Positions 22,258-26,663 of a stretch of 64,000 nt of DNA are shown here, piece after piece (position 1 is the stretch's first letter; every line of letters begins with the position of its first letter). Both the position numbers and the translations under genes were made by a program. Source of the stretch: Flavobacteriales bacterium (GTDB lineage: Bacteria > Bacteroidota > Bacteroidia > Flavobacteriales_F > PHOS-HE28); NCBI GenBank assembly GCA_020635725.1, contig JACJZF010000001.1:505947-569946 (forward strand), in the 5' to 3' direction. A model generated the notes under the pieces. It was not told the DNA's origin. It worked only from the letters and a program-made list of their open reading frames with translations, and ran no database searches.

Positions 22258-25200
22258 CTAGACCACGATGTTCACGATGCGCTTGGGCACCACGATCACC
22301 TTCTTGGGCGCCTTGCCTTCGAGGCGTTGCTGCACCTCGGGATTGGCCAGCACGGCCGCCTCTATGCTCTTGGGGTCCAGGGCTATGGGGAATTCCAGCT
22401 GCAGGCGGGTCTTGCCGTTGAAGCTGATCGGGTAGCTGAAGCTGTCCTCCACCAGGTACTCCGCGTTCCATTGGGGCCAAGGCGCCCCGGTCACACTGTC
22501 AGCATGCCCGAGCTTCTGCCAGAGCTCCTCGGCGATGTGCGGCGCGAAGGGTGCCAGCGCGATCACCAGCGGCTCCAGCACCGCGCGCTTATCGCACTTC
22601 AGGCTGCCCAGCTCGTTCACGGCAATCATGAACTGCGCCACGCTCGTGTTGAACGACATCTTCTCGATGTCCTCGCTCACCTTCTTCAATGTGGCGTGCA
22701 GGATCTTCAGTTCGGGTTTGGTGGGGGCGTCATCGGAAACGCCGAACGCATCACCAGCGCCGTGGAACAGGTTCCAGAATTTCCGCAGGAAACGGAAGGT
22801 GCCTTCGATGCCGTTGGTGTCCCACGGTTTGCTCTGCTCCAAGGGGCCGAGGAACATCTCGTAGAGCCTCAATGTGTCGGCGCCGTACTTCTCGATGATG
22901 TCGTCGGGGTTGACGACGTTCCATCTCGACTTCGACATCTTGTCCACCTGTCGAAGGCATACAACGCGCCCCTTCCACTCAATGAACTCTGCTCTGCTAA
23001 ACAGGTTGTTCTGTTTCAGTTTGAGAATATCAACGGTCTCTTCATCTTCACCGATACACTCAATGGGTATTAGGATGCCTTTGTTGAACAAATCAGGTCG
23101 TCCGACGGAAAAGTCCGGGTAGACCTTTCCTTCGGGATAGGTGACGTTGTAGAAGTTGGTTATGTAGTCGACGACGTACTGACGTGCAGTCTTGTATTCG
23201 GCGTGATCAGGCTGGCAAAGGAGGTAGTGAAGGTCAAAGCCCATAAAGACCTCCGGTGCTTTCTCGTAGGGAAGATCCTTCGGCAAGTCTTTGTTCCCTC
23301 TGTGAAGGAATACTCTAACCAGGCCAGCAGATTTACCCTGTATCATCCCCTGATTCACCAGCTTCTTCGCGGGCTCGTCGAAGTCGATCCAACCGCGGTC
23401 GTGCAGGAATTTGGTCCAGAAGCGGAAGTAGAGCAGGTGGCCGGTGGCGTGCTCGCTGCCGCCCACGTAGAGGTCGATCTGCTTCCAATAGTTGAGGGCT
23501 TCGGGTGATGCGAAGCGCTCAGGGTTGTGCGGGTCCATGTAGCGCAGGAAGTACCAGCTGCTGCCGGCCCAGCCGGGCATGGTGGTGGTCTCGATCGGGT
23601 ATACCTCACCCCCGGCCCCTCTCCCGGGGAGAGGGGAGTAGCTCCAGTCCTTCGCGCGAGCGAGCGGAGGTTCACCTTCGGCGGTAGGTAGGAACTTGTC
23701 CACCTCGGGCAGCTTCAGCGGCAGCTCGCTCTCGGGCAGCGGGTAAGGGATGCCATCCTTGTAGTAGATGGGAATGGGCTCGCCCCAATAGCGCTGTCGG
23801 CCGAAGGCGGCATCGCGCAAACGGAAGTTCACCTTGCCTTCCCCCGCGCCGAGCTTCTCCAATTCCTGGATCGCTCGCGTGATCGCCTGCGGCACCTTCA
23901 TGCCTTTCAGGAATCCTTCGCTGCTGATGGTGGCGTCCTTGCGCTCGTCGGCCTCCTTGTCTATGTCGGCGCCCTCCGTTACGGCGATGATCGGCAGCCC
24001 GAAGTGCTTCGCGAAGCGCCAATCGCGCTGATCGCCGCCGGGCACGGCCATCACCGCGCCGGTGCCGTAGCCCGCGAGCACGTAGTCGCCAACCCATACG
24101 GGCACATCGGCGCCGGTGAAGGGGTGCTTCGCGTAGCTGCCGGTGAACACGCCGCTCACCTTGTCCACCTCGGCCTGGCGCTCGCGCTCGCTGCGGTTCT
24201 TCGCCTTCTCGACGTACGCTTCGACCTCGGCCTTGCGGTCCGCATTGGTCAGTATCGGCACCAGCTCATGCTCGGGGGCAAGGGTGATGAAGGAGACGCC
24301 GAAGAGGGTGTCGGGGCGGGTGGTGAAGACTTCGATTACCTCACCCCCCGACCCCTTCTCCGAGGGAGAAGGGGAGGAATGCGCGACGTTCGGCCGGGCA
24401 TCGAGTGTTGCTTTGATGGTATCGACAACACGCGGCAGCTCCGCCATCACCTCGTCATTCGTGAATCGCAAAACGTCGAAGCCCAACTCCTTCAACCGAG
24501 CGGTTCGTGCGGCGTCCTCTTCTTGCCGCGCCTCATGGATGCTGCCGTCCACTTCGATCACCAATCGCTTGGGCAGGGAGACGAAATCGACGATGTAGCG
24601 GTCGATGATGTGCTGCCTTCGAATGCGCCCTCCTGTCGCATGCGCTCGGATTTGCTGCCATAGCTTTTCCTCTGCTTCAGTGGGCGCTTTGCGGTTCTCT
24701 CGCGCCAGGTCCTGCAGTTTCCCTGCGACAGTTCCATCGGCGGTTAAGTAGCCAGGCCGCTCGGCCCAGGTCGGCTGAGCGGTCCCCCTCTCCCTCGGAG
24801 AGGGGTTAGGGGTGAGGGCAAATCGCACGGTAGCCCCCTCGCTGCGACCGATCCAATTGCGCTGCGCTTCCTTGATGCTCTCGCTCCAATCGAGCGTGTC
24901 GAGTCCGTCGAGCAGGCGCTGGGCGTAGGCGGTGATGCGCAGGCTCCATTGCTTCATGCGCTTGCGCTCCACGGGATGGCCGCCGCGCTCGCTCACGCCA
25001 TCCTTCACCTCGTCGTTGGCGAGCACAGTGCCCAGTGCGGGGCACCAGTTCACCCAGGCATCGCTGATGTATGCGAGGCGGAAATGCTGCAGCACGAGCT
25101 GTTTGGTGCGCTCATCGAACGACTTCCATTCCGCCGCGCTGAATTCGCCGATGAATTCCTCCACATCGCCGGTGAGCACACTGGCATCCTGACCGGTGCA

Positions 25201-25704
25201 GCCTTGAGCCTCGAAGCGCGCGATCAGTTCCGCGATGGGCCGGGCCTTGTCCAGTGCGGGGTCGTACCAGCTATCGAAGAGCTGGAGGAAGATCCACTGC
25301 GTCCACTTGTAGAACGAGGGGTCGCTGGTGCGCACCTCGCGGCTCCAATCGAAGCTGAAGCCGATGTTGTCCAACTGTTCGCGGTACCGCGCCACATTCA
25401 CCTCGGTGGTCTTCGCCGGGTGCTGGCCGGTCTGTATGGCGTACTGCTCAGCGGGCAGGCCGAAGCTGTCGTAGCCCATGGGGTGCAGCACATTGAAGCC
25501 TTGGTGCCGCTTGAAGCGCGCTACGATGTCGCTGGCGATGTAGCCGAGCGGGTGCCCCACGTGCAGCCCTGCGCCGCTGGGGTAAGGGAACATGTCGAGC
25601 ACGTAGTACTTCGGCCTGGAGGGGTTGTTCTCCACGCGGTAGGTCTTGCGCTTCGCCCATTCCGCGCGCCACTTCTTCTCGATCTCCTTGTGCTCGTAGG
25701 CCAT
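22258..25704 (-). CDS. leuS: Leucyl-tRNA synthetase with an in-frame insertion of about 160 aa containing a DUF559 domain
   Basis: MAYEHKEIEKKWRAEW...YVLDMFPYPSGAGLHVGHPLGY (HIGH motif), TTRPDTLFG, and a KMSKS-type region. At 1148 aa it is about 170 aa longer than expected. Confidence 0.9.
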   Translation of the reverse strand: MAYEHKEIEKKWRAEWAKRKTYRVENNPSRPKYYVLDMFPYPSGAGLHVGHPLGYIASDIVARFKRHQGFNVLHPMGYDSFGLPAEQYAIQTGQHPAKTTEVNVARYREQLDNIGFSFDWSREVRTSDPSFYKWTQWIFLQLFDSWYDPALDKARPIAELIARFEAQGCTGQDASVLTGDVEEFIGEFSAAEWKSFDERTKQLVLQHFRLAYISDAWVNWCPALGTVLANDEVKDGVSERGGHPVERKRMKQWSLRITAYAQRLLDGLDTLDWSESIKEAQRNWIGRSEGATVRFALTPNPSPRERGTAQPTWAERPGYLTADGTVAGKLQDLARENRKAPTEAEEKLWQQIRAHATGGRIRRQHIIDRYIVDFVSLPKRLVIEVDGSIHEARQEEDAARTARLKELGFDVLRFTNDEVMAELPRVVDTIKATLDARPNVAHSSPSPSEKGSGGEVIEVFTTRPDTLFGVSFITLAPEHELVPILTNADRKAEVEAYVEKAKNRSERERQAEVDKVSGVFTGSYAKHPFTGADVPVWVGDYVLAGYGTGAVMAVPGGDQRDWRFAKHFGLPIIAVTEGADIDKEADERKDATISSEGFLKGMKVPQAITRAIQELEKLGAGEGKVNFRLRDAAFGRQRYWGEPIPIYYKDGIPYPLPESELPLKLPEVDKFLPTAEGEPPLARAKDWSYSPLPGRGAGGEVYPIETTTMPGWAGSSWYFLRYMDPHNPERFASPEALNYWKQIDLYVGGSEHATGHLLYFRFWTKFLHDRGWIDFDEPAKKLVNQGMIQGKSAGLVRVFLHRGNKDLPKDLPYEKAPEVFMGFDLHYLLCQPDHAEYKTARQYVVDYITNFYNVTYPEGKVYPDFSVGRPDLFNKGILIPIECIGEDEETVDILKLKQNNLFSRAEFIEWKGRVVCLRQVDKMSKSRWNVVNPDDIIEKYGADTLRLYEMFLGPLEQSKPWDTNGIEGTFRFLRKFWNLFHGAGDAFGVSDDAPTKPELKILHATLKKVSEDIEKMSFNTSVAQFMIAVNELGSLKCDKRAVLEPLVIALAPFAPHIAEELWQKLGHADSVTGAPWPQWNAEYLVEDSFSYPISFNGKTRLQLEFPIALDPKSIEAAVLANPEVQQRLEGKAPKKVIVVPKRIVNIVV
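23605..23646. repeat. Solo third copy of the GC-rich hairpin motif, in-frame within leuS (encodes SPLPGRGAGGEVYP)
   Basis: cctcacccccggcccctctcccggggagaggggag, in the same orientation as the 24346-24385 copy. Confidence 0.55.
24340..24830 (-). mobile_element. In-frame insertion within leuS: a DUF559 (Vsr-like endonuclease fold) domain flanked by inverted GC-rich hairpin repeats
   Basis: Encoded segment ALTPNPSPRERG...EKLWQQIRAHATGGRIRRQHIIDRYIVDFVSLPKRLVIEVDGSIHEARQEEDAARTARLKELGFDVLRFTNDEV...SPSPSEKGSGGE. Flanking nucleotide motifs: cctcaccccccgaccccttctccgagggagaagggg (24346-24385) and its inverted counterpart cccctctccctcggagaggggttaggggtgagggc (24783-24820). Confidence 0.45.
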
Positions 25705-25784: not shown

Positions 25785-26663
25785 ATGAGCGCCTCCCGCC
25801 GCATCAAATCGCGCACCCGCACCACCAGCCTGGGCACCGTCATCGGCATCACCTTGGTGCTGTGGATGCTCGGCATCCAGGGCTTCGTGCTCTTCAATGC
25901 CCGCGCGCTGGAGCGCTACTTCAAGGAACAGGTGAAGGTGGAGCTCTTCCTGAAACGTGACCTGAAGGAGGTGGATGTGATGCGGCTGCGCAAGGAACTG
26001 GACCTGGAGCTGTGGAGCGCCGGCAATGTGCTGGTGACCCCGGATCAGGCCGCAGCGGCCATGAAGGAGGAGCTGGGCGAGGATTTTTTGGAAGTGCTGG
26101 GCGGGGTGAGCCCCATCGACCCGAACATCCAGCTGAGCATCAAGCCTGCCTATGCGCAGCCGGACAGCATGCGCTGGATCGTGGACGGCCTGCGCAAGGA
26201 TGCGCGCCTGAACGACGTGTCCTACAACGCCGCCGTGATCGACAACATGGAGCGCAACTTCACCGCTCTGAACATCGGCGGGCTGGTGGTGCTGGGCCTG
26301 CTGCTGATCGTGGCGGTGGCGCTGATCAACAACACCATCCGACTGGCGATCCACAGCCAGCGCTTCCTGATCCGCACCATGCACCTGGTGGGCGCCACCC
26401 GCTGGTTCATCAAGCGGCCTTTCCTGCTCGGCGGCCTGTGGCAGGGCCTGGTGGCGGCGGCGCTGGCCATCGGTGGGCTATTGGCCGTGGTCTGGGGCAT
26501 CCGCCGCTATTTCCCCGACCTGCTGGCCTTCACGGATGCGACTTCCTTGGCGGCCATCTTCGCCGTGGTCATCGCCGCGGGGCTGCTCATCGCGCTGGTA
26601 TCCACGTGGATCGCCGTGGGCCGCTACCTTCGCATGGACCACGAAGCATTGCACTGGAGCTGA
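25785..26663 (+). CDS. ftsX: Cell-division protein FtsX (permease-like)
   Basis: N-terminal transmembrane helix, periplasmic domain, three C-terminal transmembrane helices. Conserved RTMHLVGATRWFIKRPF. Confidence 0.75.
   Translation: MSASRRIKSRTRTTSLGTVIGITLVLWMLGIQGFVLFNARALERYFKEQVKVELFLKRDLKEVDVMRLRKELDLELWSAGNVLVTPDQAAAAMKEELGEDFLEVLGGVSPIDPNIQLSIKPAYAQPDSMRWIVDGLRKDARLNDVSYNAAVIDNMERNFTALNIGGLVVLGLLLIVAVALINNTIRLAIHSQRFLIRTMHLVGATRWFIKRPFLLGGLWQGLVAAALAIGGLLAVVWGIRRYFPDLLAFTDATSLAAIFAVVIAAGLLIALVSTWIAVGRYLRMDHEALHWS

Follow-up and report, generated by a model that had tools for sequence, protein, structure and literature searches.

A probable selfish cassette with a Vsr-like DUF559 endonuclease domain and mirror-tailed terminal repeats, translated in frame within the leucyl-tRNA synthetase gene of a Flavobacteriales bacterium

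The BoxC/PIT/TMECO repeats are triplex-forming bacterial sequences that have been known since the 1990s, are linked to genome instability and have no known origin; the BoxC and PIT repeats were reportedly treated by Hoyne and colleagues in 2000. In Escherichia coli, TMECO has the form CCCTCNCCC-N3-6-GGGNGAGGG-N3-GGGNGAGGG and forms a triplex by circular dichroism and nuclear magnetic resonance; its copies are strictly intergenic, their origin is unknown, no mobility gene lies nearby, and their loci are hot spots of rearrangement (Holder et al., 2015, PMC4666352). Proteins of the DUF559 family (PF04480) belong, in a survey of PD-(D/E)XK enzymes, to one clade with Vsr and the homing endonuclease I-Bth0305I (PMC3424549); the DUF559 protein VsrA of Caulobacter crescentus causes DNA damage in vivo and triggers the DNA-damage response (PMC12907096), and a study that surveyed programmed inversions names "DUF559 domain-containing protein," unexplained, among the families enriched for flanking inverted repeats (PMC9881135). 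Repeats of this type and the nuclease domain occur together in the 64,000-nt stretch analyzed here, from a Flavobacteriales bacterium (GenBank assembly GCA_020635725.1, contig JACJZF010000001.1, positions 505,947 to 569,946; hereafter, the window). Its leucyl-tRNA synthetase gene, leuS, contains an in-frame insert that is probably a small selfish cassette of ~480 bp, with a Vsr-like DUF559 endonuclease as its sole gene and terminal inverted repeats of 33–36 nt.

The host gene (22258..25704, minus strand) is a single open reading frame (ORF) of 1148 aa that spans the cassette. Its product has the tRNA-synt_1, editing and anticodon-binding domains of a leucyl-tRNA synthetase (LeuRS) by Pfam and matches LeuRS entries of the Protein Data Bank (PDB) at E=7e-173. 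The boundaries of the complete cassette, at 24339..24817 (minus strand; 479 bp from outer tail to outer tail), were set by the inverted repeats and by comparison with the empty sites of relatives. In frame, it makes an insert of 160 aa (LeuRS aa 297–456, nt 24337–24816) between GATVRF-A and IEVFTTRPDT, in place of the loop P-I-G-E-D-F. The upstream host flank (24820..24837, minus strand) codes GATVRF and maps to Thermus thermophilus LeuRS up to residue 236; the downstream flank (24307..24336, minus strand) codes IEVFTTRPDT, the start of the connective peptide 1 (CP1) editing domain, and maps from residue 241 onward. This position between residues 236 and 241, here called site 1, belongs to the first β-hairpin of the CP1 editing domain, and the cassette is located in frame at the tip of that hairpin. 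The DUF559 domain (24403..24717, minus strand; LeuRS aa 330–434), a Vsr-like PD-(D/E)XK nuclease domain by Pfam, PDB and structure-model comparison, follows the N-terminal catalytic part and precedes the LeuRS editing domain PF13603 (aa 455–613); it matches the Pfam profile at E=6.3e-32 and 110 bits (cut-off 20.6) over profile positions 3–108 of 109, and a profile search found it to be the only DUF559 in the window. An earlier interpretation of the locus from the letters alone (the sequence-only reading) had described a 1148-aa LeuRS with an in-frame insert of ~160 aa and an intact DUF559, and the ORF list and the Pfam match bear this out.

The nuclease domain is intact. The family residues RRQ, D-F, E-x-D-G-x-x-H and R-F-x-N are present; across 74 homologues E89, D91, G92 and D78 are invariant and H95 is kept in at least 90%, and the window copy has them all. 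A structure model of the insert (161 aa), computed with the 74 homologues, has a mean predicted local distance difference test score (pLDDT) of 79.5, with the core above 90 and the repeat-encoded ends below 60. The insert matches the DUF559 protein of PDB entry 3HRL by sequence at E=3e-17, and Foldseek ranks 3HRL first (template-modeling score, TM, 0.86), followed by I-Bth0305I (3R3P, TM 0.77, 22% identity) and Vsr, with FASTK/RAP-type mitoribosomal proteins also among the fold matches; judged by this model, I-Bth0305I is the nearest functionally characterized structure. The insert alignment delimits a leader of ~33 aa (24685..24783, minus strand; TAQPTWAERPGYLTADGTVAGKLQDLARENRKA) that runs from the upstream repeat to PTEAE, where the DUF559 core begins; a helix is predicted for it at insert residues 32–44 (pLDDT 87–94). 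No Met occurs in the insert until its last third, and the nuclease lacks an ATG start of its own (the check covered ATG only), from which we infer that the nuclease depends on translation of the host gene.

The cassette is bounded by true terminal inverted repeats, as the sequence-only reading had anticipated in calling its ends like those of transposons. On the plus strand, the repeat at the upstream (N-terminal) end (24785..24817) reads CCCCTCTCC-CTC-GGAGAGGGG-TTA-GGGGTGAGG, that is, a pyrimidine stem, a loop, a purine stem, a 3-nt spacer and a tail that mirrors the stem; its counterpart at the downstream (C-terminal) end (24339..24374, minus strand) reads CCCCTTCTCC-CTC-GGAGAAGGGG-TCG-GGGGGTGAGG. 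The earlier observation of two GC-rich motifs in inverted orientation was sound, although their placement at 24346–24385 and 24783–24820 has to be shifted to these coordinates. Its proposal that they encode flexible Pro/Ser/Gly linkers also agrees with our results: the upstream repeat is translated from the minus strand as LTPNPSPRERG and the downstream repeat as SPSPSEKGSGGEV, and both linkers have pLDDT below 60 and are disordered in the structure model. A third copy, which that reading overlooked, is a solo repeat at a second LeuRS site (23604..23636, minus strand; CCCCTCTCC-CCG-GGAGAGGGG-CCG-GGGGTGAGG) and codes SPLPGRGAGGEV, LeuRS aa 690–701. The core pattern CCCCTYTCC-N3-GGAGARGGG occurs at three places in the window, which gives an observed count of 6 because both strands were scanned and a palindromic place is counted twice, vs. 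0.01 matches in shuffled sequence; a stricter whole-motif scan of the 64 kb found exactly three copies, all in leuS. Each repeat is ~33–36 nt long, including a 9–10-nt tail that mirrors the stem, and has loops of 3–5 nt. Their single-strand hairpin energies have only a modest advantage over shuffles (z from −0.8 to −2.3); the significance of the repeats rests on recurrence and architecture rather than on folding energy.

Recurrence is evident among related LeuRS genes. A genome scan with the window LeuRS yielded 79 loci, mostly from metagenome-assembled genomes (MAGs) of uncultured Flavobacteriales and at best 75–80% identical (loci are cited below by L numbers). An in-frame DUF559 interrupts exactly the same codon in 18 of the 58 LeuRS genes that were usable, and in the remaining 40 the position is taken by a short loop, mostly P-[ILV]-G-x-D-F; the empty leuS site 1 contains GTGCGCTTCCCCATCGGCGAGGACTTCATCGAGGTC. 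Carriers are dispersed on the host tree, each with an insert-free sister (e.g., window/L014, L013/L033, L005/L037, L015/L051), and one, L011, belongs to a distant clade. The view of the sequence-only reading that the block is a mobile insertion is supported, and its distribution is patchy. The same comparison speaks against a chance landing tolerated by luck, as had been pictured earlier: the site-1 codon is reused in LeuRS genes only 45–90% identical to window leuS, and a second fixed site is used as well. Deletion of a cassette could not recreate the loop, therefore the empty alleles either are ancestral or came back through recombination with empty ones. The carriers retain the conserved nuclease residues except for L003 (EVDSD) and L011 (EADG), and their leader is one of two alternative types (ERPGYLTAD…AGKL or RFRETAD…WSKL) whose distribution disagrees with the host tree. 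Erroneous assembly or binning that joined unrelated sequence within leuS would be conceivable in that the window and most relatives are metagenome assemblies; the same in-frame arrangement in 18 independent species-level genomes and ~31 independent metagenome contigs obtained in different studies, including long-read assemblies, makes this explanation hardly credible.

Comparisons between carriers indicate that the cassette has a history separate from that of its host gene. At four-fold degenerate sites of conserved codons, mean identity is 0.31 in the cassette and 0.59 in the host, and the cassette is the lower of the two in 101 of 105 genome pairs; for L008 and L009 the values are 0.36 in the cassette and 0.93 in the host (p=1e-9). 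GC content at third codon positions (GC3) is 0.55–0.69 in the cassette vs. 0.77–0.88 in the host. Upstream of the cassette, the leuS genes of L008 and L004 are 95–100% identical until ~40 nt before it and ~80% identical in the last segment of that comparison; the cassette interior is 51–73% identical, and directly past the downstream repeat identity is again 98–100%. A divergent interior with such sharp ends implies that a different cassette was installed at the same place, with its boundaries at the repeats. Closely related hosts thus hold deeply divergent cassettes that were swapped exactly at the repeats.

The nuclease domain is under purifying selection: among carriers the nonsynonymous divergence (dN) of the insert is 0.14–0.25 with synonymous divergence (dS) saturated, and in L002/L012, the sole clearly co-inherited pair, dN/dS of the insert is 0.049. 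Strong selection while fused, together with a frame that is always intact in the 18 relatives and ~31 metagenome LeuRS, would also be expected if DUF559 were a domesticated LeuRS domain (with, e.g., an RNA-binding or DNA-linked moonlighting role) that benefits the host and is passed on largely by vertical descent, with loss on repeated occasions; Vsr-like folds are capable of RNA binding, and the FASTK/RAP-type fold matches point the same way. This explanation is nonetheless quite improbable, given that insert-free sisters keep an ancestral loop that deletion cannot recreate, that near-identical hosts have cassettes mutually saturated at synonymous sites, that cassette GC3 is below that of the host, that decay forms are common, and that the same module is found in enzymes with no nucleic-acid substrate (MetH, acetyl-CoA synthetase, iPGM, IspF, and IspG).

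The second LeuRS site (site 2, window aa ~690), which maps to the ZN-2 knuckle of T. thermophilus LeuRS, documents the decay forms. It holds one to three repeat units in 10 carriers and a few non-carriers, and solo repeats or repeat pairs without DUF559 are found there in the window, L047, L023, and L077. Five metagenome LeuRS (L094, L095, L101, L112, and L137) have a complete DUF559 cassette at site 2, and all of these except L094 have at site 1 only a repeat pair, with a few to 25 residues between the repeats; these site-1 pairs represent cassettes whose nuclease was lost. Full cassette, repeat pair and solo repeat form a decay series, of which the window shows the full cassette at site 1 and a decayed solo end at site 2. 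Repeat units per cassette end vary from one to three in tandem (L008, L004, L010, L013, L015), which implies that repeats duplicate locally and independently of the nuclease. GAGG(G/A)C, present in both empty LeuRS sites, resembles the tails of the element (GGTGAGG…), a likeness that may reflect a preference for microhomology or may be coincidence. Both sites are surface elements, an assignment based on published LeuRS structures. As a separate observation on site 2, the leuS of L077 (3001–6061), with its repeat-like remnant there, is interrupted by 19 in-frame stops or frameshifts, which makes it either a pseudogene or a poor assembly.

The same architecture is translated in frame within many other housekeeping genes. 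In a metagenome scan with the DUF559 alignment, from which the 80 closest loci were taken, DUF559 lies within a stop-free frame of at least 450 aa in 57. About 31 of the hosts are LeuRS, 5 of them occupied at site 2; the others comprise acetyl-CoA synthetase, MetH (at two different sites), IcmF-like and classical methylmalonyl-CoA mutase, the helicases RecG, PriA and a UvrD-like helicase, MetRS, IleRS, TGT, TsaD, IspF, IspG, guanylate kinase (Gmk), iPGM, a GATase_5 (CobB/CobQ-like amidotransferase) domain protein, a biotin/lipoate ligase-family protein, a GH31 glycosidase, and subunits of type I (HsdM/R) and type ISP restriction-modification systems. In several hosts the same insertion position recurs across independent contigs. 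The cultured Mucilaginibacter terrae has a cassette joined in frame to the 3′ end of truB. A library of 1.84 billion representative proteins contains 5,821 DUF559 matches at E≤1e-10, and among the best 150 cluster representatives ~45 reach 300 aa or more and have DUF559 in their interior. The hairpin-coded peptides are present in only 15 of 120 called homologous proteins because gene callers mostly return the core ORF, which is why DNA context is needed to recognize a cassette. DUF559-only ORFs bear the product names "RecG" or "methionine synthase," probably as a side effect of the fusions. Free-standing DUF559 genes flanked by the same kind of repeat, which the sequence-only reading had proposed to look for, were found in other genomes, namely an Anaerolineae MAG, Hymenobacter daecheongensis and a Deinococcus plasmid. 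Homologues are present in 38 plasmid records and 5 phage records; in the two plasmid loci compared, the repeat stands beside the gene in Deinococcus and is absent in Picosynechococcus pAQ6. Two further homologues may be mentioned separately. The best-scoring insert homologue in the representative library, P0121 (377 aa), contains three matched DUF559 stretches and may represent tandem cassettes. The helicase gp43 of Corynebacterium phage phi673 (L170, 1441–3987) has an intein-like insert (CFVAGT...VHNC) with a DUF559/Vsr-like stretch (41% identity, 59% coverage by tblastn), probably the Vsr-like endonuclease known from earlier work on actinophages, where it is nested in an intein.

Inteins and introns favor similar host genes, and the two repeats of a cassette are mutually complementary and could pair in mRNA; this raises the alternative of a mature LeuRS that lacks the insert, the latter being an intein, an intron or a bypassed segment eliminated prior to or following translation. 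The leuS product has no Hint domain by Pfam and no intein residues at its junctions (F|ALTP and GGEV|IEV have neither Cys/Ser/Thr nor His-Asn), as the sequence-only reading had also concluded, and among relatives the junction residues vary freely. No Rfam intron family matches 23400–25100 up to E=1, and the nuclease is always stop-free and in the frame of the host, which introns and bypassed segments need not be. Removal of the insert is therefore very improbable. The intein, intron and artefact readings were rejected on Pfam, Rfam and recurrence across independent assemblies, respectively.

Across loci the repeats are tightly associated with the nuclease, in a fixed orientation. The density of complete motifs is 1.76/kb within 330 bp of DUF559 and 0.099/kb elsewhere in the same loci, an 18-fold difference; the tail points outward in 106 of 111 motifs near DUF559, and the motif is present on both sides of DUF559 in 40 of 67 loci. 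Cassettes have 38 distinct stem sequences, each with a tail of 7–10 nt that is a mirror of its own stem: tail and stem mirror differ by at most one mismatch in 114 of 137 ends, and the mean match is 0.875, vs. 0.740 when pairings are permuted (z=16.6). Of 106 distinct ends, 91 have a spacer of 3 nt, and in the L094 cassette even the repeat loops are complementary between both ends. The ends are thus not the simple hairpins that had been supposed; they are hairpins with a mirror tail of the BoxC/PIT/TMECO type. Neither Watson-Crick pairing nor DNA binding by a symmetric protein gives a mirror repeat any meaning, and pairing of G with G and of A with A or T follows the code of an antiparallel triple helix of the purine motif. 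When the G-rich strand is read, a stem G is opposite a tail G in 680 of 689 positions, and a stem A is opposite tail A 109 times, T 68 times and another base 3 times. All three window copies fit the three-block PIT/TMECO/BoxC build with this pairing, and the G-rich repeat strand is therefore predicted to be capable of folding into an intrastrand purine-motif triplex in single-stranded DNA.

The relation to TMECO extends to E. coli. The strict pattern GGGNGAGGG-N3-GGGNGAGGG, run on the fetched loci, matches the E. coli locus alone; by inspection, the window copies miss the strict consensus by a one-base (one G) shift, as is seen when E. coli TMECO no. 9 (…GGGGAGAGGG-TTA-GGGTGAGGGG) is set against the window repeat (GGAGAGGGG-TTA-GGGGTGAGG). 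E. coli K-12 has 23 TMECO copies and a sole DUF559 gene, ycjD, which lies 170 bp from TMECO no. 9 (L166, NC_000913.3 1351204–1351760); a rough estimate (23 × 400 bp / 4.6 Mb) puts the chance of one of the 23 motifs being so close at ~0.002. YcjD shares 35% identity with the insert of the window (E=6e-22). Its gene closes with a degenerate hairpin that codes …RSPSP*, and a partial duplicate of the gene's 3′ end comes next. Of 5426 complete E. coli genomes, 3378 have ycjD. O157:H7 F7386 (L167, upstream of fabI) was the one ycjD-negative genome compared: there, homology to K-12 breaks ~40 bp past the TMECO position, a TetR/RND-efflux island replaces the ycjD-sap side, and there is no clean empty site; this breakpoint fits the published link between the motif and rearrangement.

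These data bear on the main rival explanation, namely that repeats and nuclease are separable, the triplex-type repeats being fragile or recombinogenic sequences that spread alone or through an enzyme supplied in trans, and DUF559 being cargo captured between two of them or a guest with a preference for them, and not the enzyme behind the mobility. It would account for the solo repeats and repeat pairs without DUF559 at LeuRS sites 1 and 2, the one to three repeat units per cassette end, the presence of just one DUF559 gene near the 23 TMECO copies of K-12, the rearrangement hot spots at TMECO loci (PMC4666352), and the polyphyletic DUF559 lineages at a single site that are described below. 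It is at odds with the 18-fold motif density beside DUF559 and the outward tail in 95% of motifs, with the variation of stems between cassettes while both ends of one cassette match (down to the complementary loops of L094), with a repeat-nuclease pairing that is kept across Bacteroidota, Chloroflexota, Deinococcota, and Proteobacteria, and with the lack of any other mobility gene near the motifs (PMC4666352). Separate spread of the repeats is thus disfavored by a tight, oriented, phylum-spanning pairing, and we consider it unlikely, although less so than domestication.

In the favored explanation, that of a selfish cassette, transcription and translation of the host gene would supply the nuclease as a tethered LeuRS domain; the tethered nuclease would break DNA at empty or repeat-bearing targets, and repair would then copy the cassette into the broken target. 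The conserved repeats would act as structure-specific recognition sequences, as short homology arms or as both, which would explain the sharp boundaries, the swapping of cassettes and the absence of a target-site duplication. LeuRS would tolerate the insertion owing to the flexibility of the linkers and the location of both sites in surface loops. Recurrent occupancy of a precise site and patchiness off the host phylogeny are observed, as for homing endonuclease genes, and inverted ends of 33–36 nt are shared with DNA transposons and MITEs (miniature inverted-repeat transposable elements). The transposable-element geometry proposed in the sequence-only reading therefore holds for the terminal inverted repeats; no consistent target-site duplication was seen, and no recognized transposase (DDE, HUH, serine, or tyrosine) was found, DUF559 being the only domain of the cassettes.

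Several points weigh against this explanation. We infer nuclease activity and transfer of the cassette from sequence, and triplex formation is argued from pairing rules and from the related E. coli motif. Purifying selection would fit a host-beneficial role as well. The host tree (with insert columns left out) and the insert tree were built by neighbor joining (NJ) and have no support values. When the inverted repeats of 55 cassettes were followed outward in search of a target-site duplication, no consistent direct repeat emerged; L148 has one possible 8-bp direct repeat at the cassette ends. There are also misfits with a classical homing endonuclease. No co-conversion of host flanks is seen around the L008/L004 cassettes. 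The flanks of the two LeuRS sites are moderately conserved (71st–79th percentile downstream, 22nd–36th upstream), thus the classic habit of targeting hyperconserved sequence is not evident. In a weakly resolved NJ tree of 89 columns, the DUF559 lineages at LeuRS site 1 are polyphyletic, which argues against a single site-specific nuclease lineage; the same tree pairs DUF559 copies by host or site for RecG, acetyl-CoA synthetase, TsaD, and LeuRS site 2. Finally, the repeats of the window and of the 79 relatives' loci are nearly all within leuS, and copy number per genome may be very low; this distribution, to which the other window copy also conforms, speaks against a MITE spread through the genome.

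The cassette is best seen as a selfish nuclease insertion in a conserved gene, with a substantial chance that it forms a class of its own. With somewhat less than even confidence, we suggest that such cassettes constitute an unrecognized class of mobile element that combines a nuclease with triplex-forming ends and is expressed through in-frame insertion into housekeeping genes, and that the BoxC/PIT/TMECO repeats of Proteobacteria, Cyanobacteria, Bacteroidota, Chloroflexota, and Deinococcota are its solo ends or decay products. No description of the cassette was found in the searchable literature, the coverage of which excludes most subscription journals, and an earlier description is possible. 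Introns splice RNA and inteins splice protein; if the favored explanation is true, the cassette represents a third solution, that of staying in the protein by means of flexible linkers that it encodes itself. It would also be a testable candidate source for the BoxC/PIT/TMECO repeats, for which ycjD beside TMECO no. 9 provides a handle in E. coli. Cassettes mark sites permissive for ~160 aa in LeuRS, MetH, RecG, PriA, MetRS, IleRS, and other proteins, which are useful for protein engineering, and they call for care in annotation, given DUF559-only ORFs mislabelled RecG or MetH and long synthetases annotated without mention of the insert.

Other features of leuS and its surroundings were noted along the way. 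The gene has a GC content of 0.45–0.50 at window positions 22900–23200, vs. ~0.62 elsewhere; this stretch precedes KMSKS and is hypervariable among relatives, with many lineage-specific indels. About 20 of the 58 relatives' leuS genes (e.g., L014, L022, L025, L029, L035, L039, and L058) have another small palindromic element, absent from the window, in frame after ...FWNLFH... at the equivalent of window aa ~984. Its DNA (...CCGTCGACCC-ACG-GGGTCGACC...) is a hairpin with a SalI site and codes APVPSTHRV or APVASTHGV, and it represents a second family of translated palindromes within leuS. An ftsX-like gene (25785–26663, plus strand) divergently adjoins leuS in the window; relatives L080 and L085 have ftsX-DUF3098-bacA-truB beside leuS, truB being the gene that in M. 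terrae has its own 3′ DUF559 cassette.

Compared with known systems, the terminal repeats are closest to BoxC/PIT/TMECO, with which they share a C-rich stem, a loop of 3–6 nt, a G-rich stem, a 3-nt spacer and a mirrored second G-rich block of near-identical sequence, occurrence as solo copies and inverted pairs, and a tie to local rearrangement; the E. coli copies are intergenic, whereas here the repeats are the translated ends of a nuclease cassette within genes. Repetitive extragenic palindromic sequences and their REPIN doublets, with the associated RAYT gene, likewise have a single gene between short inverted hairpin repeats and disperse solo and paired repeats, but their gene is a Y1 HUH (IS200/IS605-like) transposase rather than DUF559, and the repeats are extragenic and untranslated and have no mirror tail or triplex code. 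The palindromic elements of Rickettsia were reportedly described by Ogata and colleagues in 2000. Like the cassette, they occur in frame in essential genes, including those of aminoacyl-tRNA synthetases, and are tolerated as surface peptides; they are 100–150 bp long, gene-free, not tied to a nuclease and spread genome-wide, whereas the cassette repeats are 33–36 nt long, flank a cargo and, in this lineage, keep with few exceptions to two leuS sites. The analogy to these elements drawn in the sequence-only reading therefore applies to the translated ends and breaks down at the coding cargo. Inteins also use fixed in-frame sites in conserved housekeeping proteins (aminoacyl-tRNA synthetases, RecG, PriA, and UvrD), have a nested endonuclease and are patchy, but the cassette has no Hint domain or splice-junction residues and apparently stays in the mature protein. 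Vsr-like/EDxHD homing endonucleases (I-Bth0305I; Dassa 2009, PMC2677866; Taylor 2011, PMC3239194) share the PD-(D/E)XK Vsr-like fold, selfishness and the invasion of conserved genes; they differ in residing in group I introns or split inteins or standing free, in that splicing restores the host product, and in having no terminal repeats. The ShiLan insertion in an actinophage DNA methylase (PMC11855218) resembles the cassette in its stop-free in-frame read-through, lack of a splicing domain, patchiness, endonuclease and predicted looping out; it is known from phage only, its HNH nuclease has a separate start in another frame, and accounts of it mention no terminal inverted repeats, whereas the Vsr-like nuclease of the cassette shares the host frame and lacks its own ATG start, and the terminal repeats of the cassette are structured. 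None of these systems combines an in-frame Vsr-like nuclease with triplex-type terminal repeats and translated ends, as the leuS cassette does.

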